Shown here piece by piece: positions 5,592 through 25,265 of a DNA stretch of 28,109 nucleotides. The translations under genes were made by a program, and so were the position numbers. Location: the NCBI GenBank assembly GCA_964359525.1, contig CAYHTH010000001.1, forward strand, positions 1 through 28,109. The letters run 5' to 3'. The stretch comes from an uncultured Methanosarcinales archaeon. Its GTDB lineage: Archaea > Nanobdellota > Nanobdellia > Woesearchaeales > GW2011-AR4. Numbering within the stretch: the stretch's first letter is position 1; each line of letters starts with the position of its first letter. The notes beneath the pieces were generated by a model. It was given only the letters and a program-made list of their open reading frames with translations, was not told the DNA's origin and did not search any database.

Positions 5592-5685
5592 ATAGAGAAA
5601 GACAAAAGCATTGATTCAAATTGTTTTGTCTTTCTAATCTTAGTAGCTGAATATTATAATCAATTACTTTTGTCAGCTACTAAGA
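5592..5685. repeat. Tandem-hairpin element, copy 1
   Basis: AGAAAGACAAAA 5596-5607 / TTTTGTCTTTCT 5624-5635 (12 bp, 16-nt loop), then TCTTAGTAGCTGA 5638-5650 / TCAGCTACTAAGA 5673-5685 (13 bp, 22-nt loop); starts with ATAG. Confidence 0.85.
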
Positions 5686-5725
5686 ATTGGATAAGTTTAT
5701 TATTGCCCGATAAGTCTTGCATCTT

Positions 5726-13567: not shown

Positions 13568-13580
13568 GGCAAAATTTGCC
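13568..13580. promoter_or_regulatory. Palindrome GGCAAA-A-TTTGCC, candidate operator in the divergent NADK-HTH/nadA promoter region
   Basis: Perfect 6-bp arms abutting minus-strand TATAAAT (13561-13567). Confidence 0.4.
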
Positions 13581-13653
13581 GCTTTTTATGATTCTTAATA
13601 ATTACATTGCCTCTTCAATTAGATATATAAATAGGATAACTCTAACCGGGTTA

Positions 13654-14601
13654 ATGGAAAGCAGATTAATGGCGGAAACTATAATGCAGGATGAGCAGAA
13701 GCTTATAGACTTGGTTCTGGAACTAAAAAAACAGAGAAATGCAGTAATTCTCGTCCATAACTATCAAAGGCCAGAAATGTTCAAAATTGCCGATTATATG
13801 GGAGACTCTCTCGGATTGTCTGTCGCAGCTGCAAAAACCGAAGCCGATGTAATTCTTTTTTGCGGCGTTAAATTCATGGCTGAAACTGCAAAAGTTCTCA
13901 GCCCGGGCAAAATAGTTTTACTGCCGAATCTTGATGCAGGATGCTCGCTCGCAGATATGGCAACTGTTGAAAAATTAAAAGAAGTAAAAAAGCAGTATCC
14001 GGATGCTGCCGTTGTAAGTTATGTCAATACAACTGCAGAGGTAAAGGCAATTTCAGACATTTGCTGCACTTCTGCCAATGCAGTTGAAGTTGTAAATTCA
14101 CTGCCAAACAAACGAGTTATATTCCTTCCGGACAAGAATCTCGGAAGATACGTGCAGGAGCACACCGATAAAGAAATAATTTTATGGGACGGCTATTGTT
14201 TTGTGCACGACAATCTTGATGCAAACACTTTGATAGAATTCAAGCAGAGATACCCTGACGCTAAAATAATCGCGCATCCTGAATGCAAAGATGAATTATT
14301 AAAATTATCAGATCACATCTGCGGCACAGGAGGCATGGCTAAGTTTGCAAAATCCGACGGCTCCAAGAATTTTATTGTAGTAACAGAATGCGGCATGACC
14401 GATAAATTAAGGCAGGACGTTCCTGAAAAAAATTTCCTTTCCTTCTGCAATGTATGCCCGTACATGAAATCTACAACTCTTCCATTAGTTGCCAGGGCAC
14501 TGATTACAAACCAAAATGAGATAACTCTGCCAGAAAATATAATAAGAGGCGCGCGAAAAGCAATAGACAGGATGCTGGCAGTTTCGAAAAATGCTGCCTA
14601 G
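13654..14601 (+). CDS. nadA: Quinolinate synthase
   Basis: VHNYQ, CGVKFMAE, AGCSLA, CCTSANA, GYCFVH, HPEC, CPYMK. ATG 13654 lies ~25 nt after GATATATAAA; 13669 or 13684 are alternatives. Confidence 0.96.
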   Translation: MESRLMAETIMQDEQKLIDLVLELKKQRNAVILVHNYQRPEMFKIADYMGDSLGLSVAAAKTEADVILFCGVKFMAETAKVLSPGKIVLLPNLDAGCSLADMATVEKLKEVKKQYPDAAVVSYVNTTAEVKAISDICCTSANAVEVVNSLPNKRVIFLPDKNLGRYVQEHTDKEIILWDGYCFVHDNLDANTLIEFKQRYPDAKIIAHPECKDELLKLSDHICGTGGMAKFAKSDGSKNFIVVTECGMTDKLRQDVPEKNFLSFCNVCPYMKSTTLPLVARALITNQNEITLPENIIRGARKAIDRMLAVSKNAA

Positions 14602-15607
14602 AGATATAGCCGACCAACAAAATCAGTTGACCAATAGTGTTGGCCGGCTAGATAGCGAATCACAGCAAATTCATTCAATTAATTCTGCGATTCGCTATAA
14701 GCTGGTTCTTGAATTCTGGGACAGACATAAGGAATTAAGTATAAAAAATAAAGATTATAGAGAATTTGTTAATAGTCTAATTAGAATCCTACTTAAACAA
14801 GATATCAATAAAGGAGATGCAACAACAAATTCATTAATAAAAAGCAAGAATATTAGCGCAGTAGTTGTTGCAAAAGAAGACGGAATATTGGCTGGCTTGG
14901 AAGAATTTTCTTTGATTAACAAAGATTTAAAATTAAAATTTTTTAAGAAAGATGGGGGTAAAATAAAAGAAGGAGAAATATTGCTGGAAATAAACGGAGA
15001 TTCCGGAAAGATTCTTGAAAGAGAAAGGGTTTTATTAAATTTGCTGCAAAGAATGAGCGGCATTTCAACATTAGTTTCAAAACTAAATAAAGAATTAAAA
15101 AATAAAATAAAATTGGCTGCAACCAGAAAAACTTTATGGGGTTTGCTTGATAAAAAAGCAGTCAGCATCGGCGGTGGATTGACGCACAGGCTAAATTTAA
15201 ATGACAGAATTATAATAAAAGAAAATCATCTAAAAATTCTTGGCAATAATATAGGAAATGTAATTAATTCAGTTAAATTCAAATCAAAATATATTGAAAT
15301 TGAAGTCGAGGATAAAAAACAAGCTTTTACAGCGGCAAAAGCAATAACAAAAATCATGGAAAATAAAAAACTCAGAAACAATCAAATTTTTGCTATGATG
15401 TTTGATAAAATTCCACCGGAAGAAATTAAATCAATAATTAATAAGTTTAAAAATGAAAGAATATATGATAAAATTTTATTTGAAGCATCTGGAAATATAA
15501 ATGAGAATAATCTAACAAATTACATAGATTGCGGAGTGGATATTATTTCCATGGGCTCGATGACAAACTCTGCAAAAATACTGAATATGTCGCTTGAAAT
15601 CGGATGA
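14591..15607 (+). CDS. nadC: Nicotinate-nucleotide pyrophosphorylase (quinolinate phosphoribosyltransferase) with extended N-terminus
   Basis: GDATT, ERVLLNLLQRMSGIST, ATRKT, HRLNLND, IKENH, EVE, EASGNI, SMGSMT. Confidence 0.93.
   Translation: MLPRDIADQQNQLTNSVGRLDSESQQIHSINSAIRYKLVLEFWDRHKELSIKNKDYREFVNSLIRILLKQDINKGDATTNSLIKSKNISAVVVAKEDGILAGLEEFSLINKDLKLKFFKKDGGKIKEGEILLEINGDSGKILERERVLLNLLQRMSGISTLVSKLNKELKNKIKLAATRKTLWGLLDKKAVSIGGGLTHRLNLNDRIIIKENHLKILGNNIGNVINSVKFKSKYIEIEVEDKKQAFTAAKAITKIMENKKLRNNQIFAMMFDKIPPEEIKSIINKFKNERIYDKILFEASGNINENNLTNYIDCGVDIISMGSMTNSAKILNMSLEIG
14606..14698. repeat. Tandem-hairpin element, copy in the nadC 5' region
   Basis: TAGCCGACCAACA 14607-14619 / TGTTGGCCGGCTA 14638-14650 (13 bp, one A-C, 18-nt loop); ATAGCGAATCACAG 14652-14665 / CTGCGATTCGCTAT 14685-14698 (14 bp, one A-C, 19-nt loop); 93 nt; starts with ATAG. 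Confidence 0.85.
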
Positions 15608-16392
15608 AAGCAGGAATAATTGGCTGCGGATTTATTGGAACAGAAGTTGCAGAATTCGTTGATAAAGACGATTCTTTTGATTTAGTTGGATTAAACGATG
15701 TTGACAAAAACAAAGTTGATGAATTGATAAAAAAATTAAATAAAAAGCCAGCGTTTATGGGCATTGACGGGTTAATAAAAAATTCAGATTTAATAATTGA
15801 ATCGGCAACCAAAAATGTAATTGAGTCGATATTAAAAAATGAAAATCTTGACAAAAAAGGCAAGAAGCTGCTGATAATGAGCACCGGTGGGCTGATTAAT
15901 AATCTGGATTTATTAAGCAAAATAAAAAATTGCGAAATATTGCTCCCTTCAGGGGCTATTGCCGGATTAGATGCTATTAAGTCTGTTTCAGGAAAAATAA
16001 AATCATTAAGTTTAACGACAACAAAGCCTGTAAGGGGATTAGAAGGCGCGCCTTATATTGTTAACAATAAAATTGATTTAAGTAAATTAAAAGACAAAAA
16101 AGTAATTTTTGAAGGGGATTTAAAGGAAGCTGTTGCCGGATTTCCGCAAAACATAAACGTGGCTGCAACATTATTTTTGGCATCAAAATTTGAAAATATC
16201 AAAGTAAAAATTGTTGCAGATTCTGATACAAAATTCAATACTCACGAAATAGAAGTCATCGGAGAGTTTGGAATTATAAAAACAACAACACAGAATCTTC
16301 CGAGCAAAAATCCAAAAACAAGTTATTTGGCCTTATTGAGCGCAATACAGACGATAAAAAATCTGAAAAATAACATAAAAGTGGGAAATTAA
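15604..16392 (+). CDS. nadX: L-aspartate dehydrogenase
   Basis: GIIGCGFIG Rossmann motif, LPSGAIAGLD, FPQNINVAA, NTHEI, NPKTSYLALLS; 4-nt overlap with nadC. Confidence 0.93.
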   Translation: MKAGIIGCGFIGTEVAEFVDKDDSFDLVGLNDVDKNKVDELIKKLNKKPAFMGIDGLIKNSDLIIESATKNVIESILKNENLDKKGKKLLIMSTGGLINNLDLLSKIKNCEILLPSGAIAGLDAIKSVSGKIKSLSLTTTKPVRGLEGAPYIVNNKIDLSKLKDKKVIFEGDLKEAVAGFPQNINVAATLFLASKFENIKVKIVADSDTKFNTHEIEVIGEFGIIKTTTQNLPSKNPKTSYLALLSAIQTIKNLKNNIKVGN

Positions 16393-16493: not shown

Positions 16494-18722
16494 ATGTATG
16501 AACTAATAATTACCGAAAAGCCAGCAGCTGCAAACAAGATAGCTGAAGCGCTGGCTGACGGGAAAGCAATAAAGGAAAATTATCAGGGAGTGCCTTATTA
16601 TAGATTAACTCACGGCAAAAAAGATATTGTTGTCGCATGTGCCGTCGGCCACCTTTATGGATTAGCTGAAAAAGTAAAGAAGGGTTGGGTATATCCTGTA
16701 TTTGATATTGAGTGGAAGCCGATTTCTGAGAATTCCAAAAGGGCTGCATTCACTAAAAAATACCTCAACGCAATTAAAAAACTTGCAAAAGATGCCAATG
16801 AGTTTACAGTTGCCACAGATTTTGACCAGGAAGGGGAAGTGATTGGTCTGAATATTGTGCGTTATCTCTGCAAAAGGAAAGACGCAAACCGCATGAAATT
16901 CTCAACATTGACAAAAGATGAATTAAGGGAAGCTTACAACAAGAAGGGAAATCATCTTGAATGGGGCCAGGCAGAATCAGGGGAGGCCCGGCACTTTTTG
17001 GATTTCTACAACGGAATTAATTATTCAAGGGCATTGACTGCAGCAATCAAAACAACAGGAACTTTCAAATTGATGTCAACTGGCAGAGTTCAGGGCCCTG
17101 CTCTAAAAATTATTGTAGACAGGGAACGCGAAATAAACGTTTTTGTCTCAAAGCCATTCTGGCAGATTGAACTTCTTGGAGAACATAACAAACAGGAGAT
17201 AATTGCATGGCACAAGGAAGACAAGTTCTGGGAAAAAACAAAAGCAGATTCTATAATTGAAAAGACAAAAAACCAGAAAGAAGCAAAAATAGGCAATCTG
17301 GACAAGAAGCAGTTCAACCAGATGCCGCCGTTTCCCTTTGACCTCACATCACTGCAAGTTGAAGGCTACCGCTGCCATGGAATTTCTCCAAAAGAAATTT
17401 TGGAAATTGGGCAGGAGCTTTACACTTCCGGATATATTTCATATCCAAGAACATCAAGCCAGCAATTGCCTCCTGCGATAGGTTACATGAAAGTTCTGAA
17501 TGACCTGAACAAACAAAAGCAATATTCTGATTTAGTTAAGAAATTACTAAAAAAATCATCGCTCAGGCCAAACAACGGGAAGAAAACAGACCCTGCGCAC
17601 CCTGCGATATACCCCACAGGAATTATTCCAGCAGAGCTTACCGAGAGGGAATCAAAAATATATGACCTGATTGTAAAAAGATTTATTGCAGCATTCGCAG
17701 AGAATGCAGTAAGGGAAACAGTGACTGCAGACATAAACTGCAGCAATGAAATTTTTATTGCAAAAGGAACAAGGACAATAGAGAAAGGCTGGCACGAATT
17801 TTACTCCCCTTATGTAAATCTTGAAGAGATTGAGCTTCCAAATATGAAAAAAGATGACAAAATTAAAGTCAACAAAATAGAGCTGATAAGCAAGGAAACC
17901 CAGCCTCCAAAAAGATATACTCCGGCGTCGATAATCAAAGATTTGGAAAAAAGGAATCTCGGAACAAAAGCCACAAGGTCGGAAATAGTGGATACATTGT
18001 TCCAGCGCGGGTACGTGCAGGGCAAAGCGATAGAAGCCACAAATCTTGGAATTTCAATGGTTGAAACTCTTGAAAAATACTGCCCTAAGATTCTGGATGA
18101 GGATTTAACAAGAAAGTTTGAGATTGAGATGGACAAGATAAGGGAAGGCAAGCAAAAAAAAGAGCAGCTTCTCGAAGATGCAAAAGACGCAATAACAAAA
18201 ATAACCGCAGAATTAAAAAAACACCAAAAAGAAATCGGAACTGATTTGCAAAAAGCAAATAAAGAAACACAGGATGAAATGTCTTTCCTCGGAATTTGCC
18301 CGTCGTGCAAGCAGGGAAATATCATGATGAGGCGCGGAAAATTTGGAGCTTTTGCAGCCTGCAATAAATATCCGGACTGCAAGACAATTTTCTCAATACC
18401 AAAAAATGCTTTGATAAAGCCTGCAAAAAAAGACTGCGAAACTTGTGGATTTCCAAAAGTGCTTGCAATAAAAAAAGCCCGCCAGCCGATGGAATTCTGC
18501 TTAAATCCAAAATGCCCGACAAAATTAGTGGAAGGCCAGGCAGGAGAGGATGCAAAAGCAATTGCAAGAGGCGAGGTAAAAAGAAAATGCCTAAAATGCA
18601 ATGAAGGCGATATTGTGTTGAGGAGTTCAATTTATGGAAAGTTTTACGCTTGTAACCGCTTTCCGAAATGTCGTTATACGGAAAAACTAGTAAATCATAA
18701 TGATAAAGAAAATAATGAATAG
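16494..18722 (+). CDS. topA: DNA topoisomerase IA with C-terminal zinc ribbons
   Basis: IITEKP and ATDFDQEGE TOPRIM motifs, GRVQGPAL, GYISYPRT active-site Tyr, GLGTKATR-like NLGTKATR, several CxxC ribbons. Confidence 0.97.
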   Translation: MYELIITEKPAAANKIAEALADGKAIKENYQGVPYYRLTHGKKDIVVACAVGHLYGLAEKVKKGWVYPVFDIEWKPISENSKRAAFTKKYLNAIKKLAKDANEFTVATDFDQEGEVIGLNIVRYLCKRKDANRMKFSTLTKDELREAYNKKGNHLEWGQAESGEARHFLDFYNGINYSRALTAAIKTTGTFKLMSTGRVQGPALKIIVDREREINVFVSKPFWQIELLGEHNKQEIIAWHKEDKFWEKTKADSIIEKTKNQKEAKIGNLDKKQFNQMPPFPFDLTSLQVEGYRCHGISPKEILEIGQELYTSGYISYPRTSSQQLPPAIGYMKVLNDLNKQKQYSDLVKKLLKKSSLRPNNGKKTDPAHPAIYPTGIIPAELTERESKIYDLIVKRFIAAFAENAVRETVTADINCSNEIFIAKGTRTIEKGWHEFYSPYVNLEEIELPNMKKDDKIKVNKIELISKETQPPKRYTPASIIKDLEKRNLGTKATRSEIVDTLFQRGYVQGKAIEATNLGISMVETLEKYCPKILDEDLTRKFEIEMDKIREGKQKKEQLLEDAKDAITKITAELKKHQKEIGTDLQKANKETQDEMSFLGICPSCKQGNIMMRRGKFGAFAACNKYPDCKTIFSIPKNALIKPAKKDCETCGFPKVLAIKKARQPMEFCLNPKCPTKLVEGQAGEDAKAIARGEVKRKCLKCNEGDIVLRSSIYGKFYACNRFPKCRYTEKLVNHNDKENNE

Positions 18723-24986: not shown

Positions 24987-25139
24987 ATGGAAGAGCAAAA
25001 AGAAGAGCCTGACGAGTATAACGACAAGGTAAAAGACGAAGACAAGGATGACTTGGAAGACAAAGACGAGGATGAAGACTACAAGGATGATGACAAGGAC
25101 AAAGACGAGGATGAAGAAGACGAGGGCGATGAGGAATAG
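24987..25139 (+). CDS. Small, extremely acidic protein (50 aa; absent from the ORF track)
   Basis: Hand translation MEEQKEEPDEYNDKVKDEDKDDLEDKDEDEDYKDDDKDKDEDEEDEGDEE*; ATG 24987, TAG 25137-25139; TATA-like TTATTTAAA at 24947-24955. Confidence 0.7.
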   Translation: MEEQKEEPDEYNDKVKDEDKDDLEDKDEDEDYKDDDKDKDEDEEDEGDEE

Positions 25140-25226
25140 AGAATTTTGAAAAATTATCAAATTGTCAAAATTCTCTAAGAGAACTTTGAATGAAATTTAA
25201 AAAATAATGAATAATTCAAAGTTCTC
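25136..25226. repeat. Tandem-hairpin element, copy after the acidic ORF
   Basis: TAGAGAATTTTGA 25137-25149 / TCAAAATTCTCTA 25165-25177 (13 bp, 15-nt loop); GAGAACTTTGAAT 25179-25191 / ATTCAAAGTTCTC 25214-25226 (13 bp, 22-nt loop); starts with ATAG. Confidence 0.85.
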
Positions 25227-25265
25227 AATAAGCAATTAATTTCAAATTTTTTCTAAATGGCATAA

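Follow-up and report, generated by a model that had tools for sequence, protein, structure and literature searches.

A 31-codon tandem-hairpin insertion in the nadC gene of a woesearchaeon and the TA-flanked repeat family to which it belongs

Introduction

Palindromic repeats that lie in frame within genes have been published from bacteria: the Rickettsia palindromic elements (RPE), ERIC and BOX. MITEs derived from IS630/Tc1-mariner elements (RUP of pneumococcus, SM1 of Sulfolobus) measure ~100 nt, insert at a TA target that they duplicate, and are mobilised in trans; the target duplicated by Correia elements is likewise TA. PATE and REP/REPIN repeats, mobilised by IS200/IS605 or RAYT enzymes, insert beside a specific tetranucleotide and leave no target duplication.

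In-frame fusions made by bacterial MITEs have been reviewed with RPE as the extreme case, these being bacterial elements of ~100-150 bp that encode conserved peptides and have about half of their copies in genes (PMC10969869). The archaeal MITEs covered by the same source come from Sulfolobus, haloarchaea and Desulfurococcus, with none from DPANN (PMC10969869), and our literature search on MITEs in Woesearchaeota or DPANN returned nothing specific and no published description of the family reported below.

Here we analyse an element in nadC, the gene for quinolinate phosphoribosyltransferase, in a 28,109-nt stretch of woesearchaeal DNA (the whole of this stretch is called the window). An original prediction, made from the sequence of the window, had proposed that nucleotides 14606-14698 are an archaeal analogue of RPE inserted in frame at the N-terminus of NadC, with an attenuator or processing site and a non-canonical nadC start as the alternative.

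Results

A clean insertion near the 5' end of nadC

The nadC gene is part of an intact operon for de novo NAD synthesis in which nadA, nadC and a nadX-type gene overlap, the last of these completing the set (Table 1). Its ATG at 14591 overlaps the nadA stop codon (TAG, 14599-14601). As had been described, the 93 nt at 14606-14698 begin on a codon boundary 15 nt past this ATG, are free of stop codons in the nadC frame and encode the 31 residues originally listed.

NadC orthologues were located in 12 of the 24 congeneric genomes first searched, and also in several neighbouring families. When N-termini were aligned, all 12 congeneric sequences and one sequence from a neighbouring family were without the 31 residues, and the alignment has one clean 31-column gap, the outcome that an insertion had predicted. 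In all 12 congeners M-x-x-R-x runs directly into KLVLEFWDR, the neighbouring-family sequence being more diverged; orthologues without the insert are 301-313 aa long, their five N-terminal residues are poorly conserved, and elsewhere the congeners are 54-75% identical with invariant catalytic motifs. The overlap of the nadC ATG with the nadA stop is kept in 10 of the 12. At the empty site the closest relative reads AGAGAC-AAGCTG (the hyphen marks the junction) and the window reads AGAGA-TA-(91 nt)-TA-AGCTG, which is the product of a TA target duplication if the ancestor read GAT AAG. Formally, such a duplication is not separable from the case in which the element carries a terminal TA of its own and inserted beside a TA. 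Under either description, nucleotides 14606-14698 are confirmed as a clean 31-codon insertion into nadC.

The gene borders of the nadA-nadC operon have been struck repeatedly and independently. In two other congeners (L014 on G002:C74 and L018 on G003:C22) the nadA/nadC overlap is split by ~100-nt insertions that carry two hairpins and belong to other repeat types, and the nadC of G003 also has a copy of the nadC-type family three codons from its end (G003:C22:3313-3409).

Reading frame and predicted structure of NadC

Apart from the insert, nadC, nadA and nadX carry no other lesion and keep their conserved residues. In-frame ATG, GTG or TTG codons of nadC occur at codon 1 (ATG), at codon 13 (TTG) and then at codon 100 in the conserved core, so the stretch between the element and the core holds none, as the original prediction had stated. 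A functional NadC must therefore contain element-encoded residues. The Pfam domains QRPTase_N and QRPTase_C span residues 76-156 and 160-336, respectively; since they begin only at residue 76, ~40 residues separate the insert from the catalytic domains, and it lies well away from the catalytic machinery. In the predicted NadC structure the core is confident and the first 30 residues are of low confidence, loosely helical or floppy. The 31 extra residues, which lie close to the tip of an N-terminal extension specific to the genus, probably form a loose helix or no ordered structure.

Architecture of the element

Comparison with the repeat family described below refined the register: the mobile unit is 91 nt (14607-14697) and a duplicated TA brings the net gain to 93 nt, so that 14606-14698 denotes the same insertion in another register. 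A two-base spacer separates the hairpins, the two ends of this copy have only TAGC/GCTA in common, and each half is itself palindromic. The predicted RNA fold reaches -32.7 kcal/mol on the plus strand (z = -4.3) and -47.1 kcal/mol on the minus strand (z = -8.0), with no shuffle as good on either. Searches of Rfam gave no match to the element (best E = 8.3, far under the gathering score).

The original prediction had drawn attention to one A-C mismatch per stem on the plus strand, read as G-U on the minus strand. This stands for the nadC copy; as a property of the family it does not, since G-U and A-C both occur in the same orientation in the family alignment. The mismatch in hairpin 1 lies where other copies carry a bulged, unpaired base that is conserved in stem 1, and the stem of hairpin 2 deviates from the family consensus on both arms with its pairing preserved.

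Table 1. Positions of genes and repeat elements in the window, and of family copies read in frame in other genomes
Feature	Position	Strand	Net gain and place in gene	Basis
nadA (quinolinate synthase)	13576..14601	+		ORF list; Pfam NadA, E = 1e-118
nadC (quinolinate phosphoribosyltransferase), 338 codons including the 31-codon insert	14591..15607	+		ORF; Pfam
Aspartate dehydrogenase gene, nadX-type	15604..16392	+		ORF list; Pfam Asp_DH_C
TTG, codon 13 of nadC, within the element; sole other start-type codon before codon 100	14627..14629	+		In-frame start-codon scan
MITE-like tandem-hairpin element, 91 nt, TAGC...GCTA ends	14607..14697	.		Family covariance model; alignment with 14 copies from other genomes
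Left copy of duplicated TA target	14605..14606	.		TA-TAG...-TA flanks of family; two bases at relatives' empty site
Right copy of duplicated TA target	14698..14699	.		Family flanks
Hairpin 1: 13-bp arms 14607-14619 / 14638-14650, 18-nt loop, one A-C mismatch	14607..14650	.		Fold; family covariation at stem
Hairpin 2: 13-bp arms 14653-14665 / 14685-14697, 19-nt loop, one A-C mismatch	14653..14697	.		Fold
Sister-subfamily copy, TA-TAGAG...two hairpins...CTC-AATA	25135..25230	.		Shape scan; second model
Tandem-hairpin element, same shape, other stems, degenerate flanks	5592..5687	.		Shape scan
TrpE (anthranilate synthase component I) copy	G052		+90 nt; 18-20 nt past ATG	Stop-free, in frame
Copy in ~1050-aa conserved surface protein	G046:C9:105-202 (L071)		+96 nt; 15-17 nt past ATG	Stop-free, in frame
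HD-domain protein copy	G016		+87 nt; near C-terminus	Stop-free, in frame

Persistence in the population

Four independent groundwater assemblies contain the 338-aa, insert-bearing NadC, as two variants that are one residue apart, with that residue inside the insert; the one assembly with readable DNA matches the window at every base of the element. Contigs with the element in nadC also occur in public runs of three studies, one contig being ~2-3% diverged, and the same runs contain co-occurring relatives without the element in nadC. Because it is seen in independent assemblies and in three studies, the insertion is not an assembly artefact and is fixed in the species-level population.

Elsewhere in the window, within the topoisomerase I gene, 11 of the 12 differences from an independent assembly of the same population (L155) are packed into 40 bases (16913-16952). 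Such clustering resembles a variable patch or a short tract of recombination more than scattered mutation.

A dispersed family of tandem-hairpin repeats

A BLAST search of the element against relatives matched the left arm of hairpin 1 at multiple places in one congener. The family is a non-coding repeat of 89-94 nt made of two abutting hairpins, each unit ending TAG...CTA, with the overall design TA-TAG(C/T)CGAC...hairpin 1...CTA, a short spacer, hairpin 2 and a closing TA. At its termini the consensus has inverted repeats of ~12-25 nt, TAGCCGACCAAC... and ...GTGGTTGGCAA. Across 15 aligned copies RNAalifold recovers both hairpins, with compensatory changes at 6 of 21 stem pairs, in both stems. 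TA flanks were present on 80 of the 95 copies located.

An exact-pattern scan of ~186,000 species genomes placed the family almost only in groundwater MAGs labelled Candidatus Woesearchaeota, and the covariance model detected it in 25 of the 43 genomes of the genus, with ~30, 18, 16 and 14 matches in the top four; runs of identical-scoring copies look like a recent burst. The nadC element scores 61 bits against this model (E = 8e-8 in its genome). Plain BLAST of the element within the host genome gave no second copy, and by BLAST and the covariance model the nadC copy is the single member of the nadC-type subfamily there.

The family has several of the features by which prokaryotic MITEs are recognised: it is short and non-coding, has many dispersed copies and terminal inverted repeats, and duplicates its target, with empty sites. 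By sequence comparison, the nadC insert is one copy of a dispersed, TA-duplicating palindromic repeat family of Woesearchaeota (DPANN).

Sister subfamilies in the host genome

Relatives of the element in the host genome were revealed only by the covariance model, a shape scan and a second model (R2). They form subfamilies, with more than 15 copies in all, that are unrelated to it in sequence and match it in length, in the pair of abutting hairpins and in the TA-TAG...CTA-TA ends. One sister subfamily has 9-10 host-genome copies, among them that at 25135-25230, and is present in 21 of the 43 genomes. That the subfamilies have their shape and TAG...CTA tips in common, and not their stem sequences, may mean that what is recognised is the structure together with a few bases at the ends.

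The TAG at 25137-25139 of this sister copy is the stop codon of an upstream 50-codon acidic ORF, and a long ORF also ends exactly at an element-terminal TAG at C7:4298-4388, C13:6285-6374 and C192:834-924 of the host genome; since these ORFs end at the terminal TAG, sister elements often provide the stop codon of the neighbouring gene. Nested arrangements occur as well, with one tandem-hairpin subfamily at a TA within the loop of another (G004:C28:5135-5552, L041; G000:C14:554-702).

Copies in genes and selection on the reading frame

About two thirds of the 95 located copies are intergenic, a dozen lie in the last few codons of genes and a handful may disrupt genes; ORFs were called mechanically, so the count of frame-breaking genic copies is rough. 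Four copies are read through by a long ORF: the nadC copy (+93 nt) and three in other genomes (Table 1). The site is cleanly empty, with one TA, in 11 orthologues of TrpE and in 11 of the surface protein.

To set an expectation for these four, we used the 76 other TA-flanked copies: 4.6% of their orientation-by-phase placements are stop-free, and 1.75% are stop-free and a multiple of three in length. The frame-preserving copies, 4 of at most ~29 candidate genic ones, are far above this expectation, with a rough binomial value of ~2e-3 under the most conservative denominator and within the limits of mechanical ORF calls. Because only 1.75% of random placements keep the frame open, selection appears to act on the reading frame, and translation of the insert is most likely. 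The surface-protein copy is without exactly the TAA that its closest relatives carry in that frame, a difference of one base.

Three of the in-frame copies (nadC, TrpE and the surface protein; n = 3) lie 15-20 nt past the ATG, with earlier TA sites in those genes unused. A hairpin at this distance lies just outside the footprint of an initiating ribosome and could be tolerated there, or exploited for start-codon use or translational coupling. The best 29 copies of the second subfamily (model R2) are all intergenic or out of frame and for that reason add no data on this position.

In the surface protein the insert separates a charged MGKEK from the hydrophobic core of the signal sequence, so that the region before the hydrophobic core is now 37 residues long. 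Its peptide, searched against 1.8 billion representatives, returned one weak and uninformative match.

Search for a mobilising enzyme

Transposase genes of the IS630 type (PF13358) occur in 11 of the 43 genomes of the genus, including the host, where one lies at G000:C189:794-1246 on a 1.6-kb contig with ~30-nt inverted ends. As a partner for the family this type was rejected: in the three elements examined (that on G000:C189, with TACTACTGTCATG-type ends, and those of G003 and G018) the ends are unlike those of the nadC element. Solo Y1_Tnp (PF01797) genes are also present, in the host as an IS200-type gene of ~155 aa (G000:C7:1877-2227); none is flanked by these hairpins. TnpB-type genes gave weak matches only. 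Among the IS630-type genes, Y1-type genes and orphan termini of these fragmented MAGs, no autonomous element with family ends was found. An inverted pair of family copies in G047 encloses a 175-aa ORF that bears no sign of being a transposase and that, judged by eye, we take to resemble a 2'-5' RNA ligase.

Discussion

The reading that we consider probable is that a MITE-like element inserted at a TA in nadC, that the frame was kept, and that the insert is read through in an intact NadC. A small non-autonomous DNA transposon would have entered at the TA spanning nadC codons 5 and 6 and duplicated it, mobilised in trans by the cut-and-paste or copy mechanism of a putative transposase; the sum of 91 and 2 nt and the freedom from stops in the nadC frame would have left the gene intact. 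Ribosomes starting at the ATG that overlaps the nadA stop would then read through the element and add 31 residues. The hairpins would be the element's own architecture, conserved for mobility, and no nadC device. Copies landing in genes would normally be destructive, with rare frame-preserving ones near a protein terminus surviving, the nadC copy among them. Judged from sequence comparisons, the native ATG is most likely used and the insert translated, and we infer that NadC activity is retained.

A gene on its way out is the strongest competitor, and we consider it unlikely: the insertion would have inactivated or crippled nadC, and the open frame and multiple-of-three length would be coincidental. 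De novo NAD synthesis may be dispensable in the genus, given that just 12 of the 24 congeners first searched have nadC, strong hairpins 16 nt past the start could depress translation, and an open frame may be luck with a prior of about 2%. Yet just ~1.75% of placements would be stop-free and keep the frame, and the three other genic copies likewise keep frame. The lesion-free state of nadC, nadA and nadX, with their invariant residues, also speaks against decay, as does the unchanged persistence of the insertion over samples, studies and a strain 2-3% diverged.

Somewhat less probable still is a functional nadC whose translation begins in or after the element, at the TTG at 14627 or at a non-canonical codon such as the CTG at 14702, so that the insert is partly or wholly absent from the protein. 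The in-frame TTG at codon 13 and the poor conservation of the first five residues would permit this. Under such a start nothing would require the 5' part of the element to stay open, yet in each of the four genic copies the frame runs uninterrupted from the native ATG; in 10 of the 12 congeners the nadC start codon overlaps the nadA stop, which suggests coupled translation from that position; and past the element no ATG, GTG or TTG is offered until codon 100.

We see little room for an origin of the hairpins as a regulatory or RNA element, be it an antisense small RNA or, following nadA, an attenuator or a processing site. Folding is much better on the minus strand (-47.1 kcal/mol, z = -8, vs -32.7 kcal/mol), with both mismatches becoming G-U, and Correia-type bacterial MITEs act on transcripts after their insertion (PMC2649163). 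That both mismatches fall on one strand has, however, a chance of 1 in 4, the mixture of G-U and A-C in one orientation across the family gives no wobble strand bias, and Rfam holds no match. Relatives keep the nadA/nadC overlap with no hairpin at all, so the element is no conserved part of the operon, and the original prediction's alternative, in which nadC has a non-canonical start and the hairpins serve in attenuation or processing, is unsupported as an origin. A secondary regulatory effect on nadC translation is possible.

In a bulge-helix-bulge intron, a 4-bp helix at the exon-intron junctions lies between two bulges of 3 nt each. Removal of the 93 nt by such an archaeal intron, or their skipping by ribosomes in the manner of the bypassing known from phage T4 gene 60 and the yeast mitochondrial byps, is hardly credible: the length is a multiple of three, excision would restore the ancestral NadC and a short direct repeat (ATA) at both junctions could provide take-off and landing sites, but by inspection the junctions have no bulge-helix-bulge geometry and the predicted fold is two plain hairpins with at most a short closing helix, a take-off stop codon is absent, neither process needs a stop-free insert and yet all in-frame genic copies are stop-free, and the majority of family copies lie between genes as DNA repeats flanked by a duplicated target.

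Returning to the read-through MITE-like insertion, the locus can be set against the systems named at the outset. Like RPE, it is a short palindromic mobile repeat found in frame in unrelated housekeeping genes, where it adds a peptide and does not destroy the protein. Unlike RPE, the family is mostly intergenic, with few open frames and in-frame copies as rare survivors; its host in the case of nadC is archaeal (DPANN), and there is no sequence relation. The proposed RPE analogy accordingly holds in part: in-frame, stop-free copies in nadC and three other genes, with empty sites in orthologues where checked, agree with it, whereas a family whose copies are mostly intergenic and stop-rich is more like an ordinary TA-duplicating MITE.

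With Correia elements the family has in common a ~100-nt non-coding repeat, target duplication, the lack of a known transposase and a location at gene borders (PMC5039591, PMC2649163); Correia elements differ in being bacterial and in forming a single long hairpin of terminal inverted repeats with an IHF site, where the nadC family has two abutting hairpins. The Correia terminal repeat tatagtggattaacaaaaa (PMC5039591) and the family terminus TATAGTCGACCAACAAAG agree at 14 of 18 positions and both begin TA-TAG, a post hoc comparison that is insignificant after correction for multiple comparisons; the likeness may be coincidence or related end recognition, and we treat it as a lead only. MITEs derived from IS630/Tc1-mariner elements are similar in TA duplication and in length (~100 nt), and differ in that the resident IS630-type elements examined (three) have other ends. 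PATE and REP repeats resemble the family in hairpins conserved in shape and not in sequence, in a conserved unpaired stem base and in the presence of solo Y1 genes in the genomes; the Y1 genes of the nadC-family genomes are, however, not flanked by family hairpins, and the TA on both sides can be read either way. In nadC the element acts like an RPE, and the family as a whole behaves like a MITE of the Correia or RUP type. The kind of element is known; the family and its host lineage are new.

The bolder proposal, that tandem-hairpin TA elements are a structure-defined class of archaeal mobile DNA whose position 15-20 nt past start codons reflects an interaction with initiation or a targeting rule, beyond mere tolerance, is at present a long shot.

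The comparison defines a repeat superfamily of the form TA-TAG...two hairpins...CTA-TA and raises the question why in-frame copies cluster 15-20 nt past start codons. For annotation it is a warning that extra N-terminal segments of DPANN proteins can derive from repeats. With empty sites, a family and population data, nadC is a well-documented archaeal case in which a palindromic mobile repeat would have reshaped the N-terminus of a protein, and it comes from a lineage whose very small, gene-dense genomes leave selfish DNA few safe landing sites.
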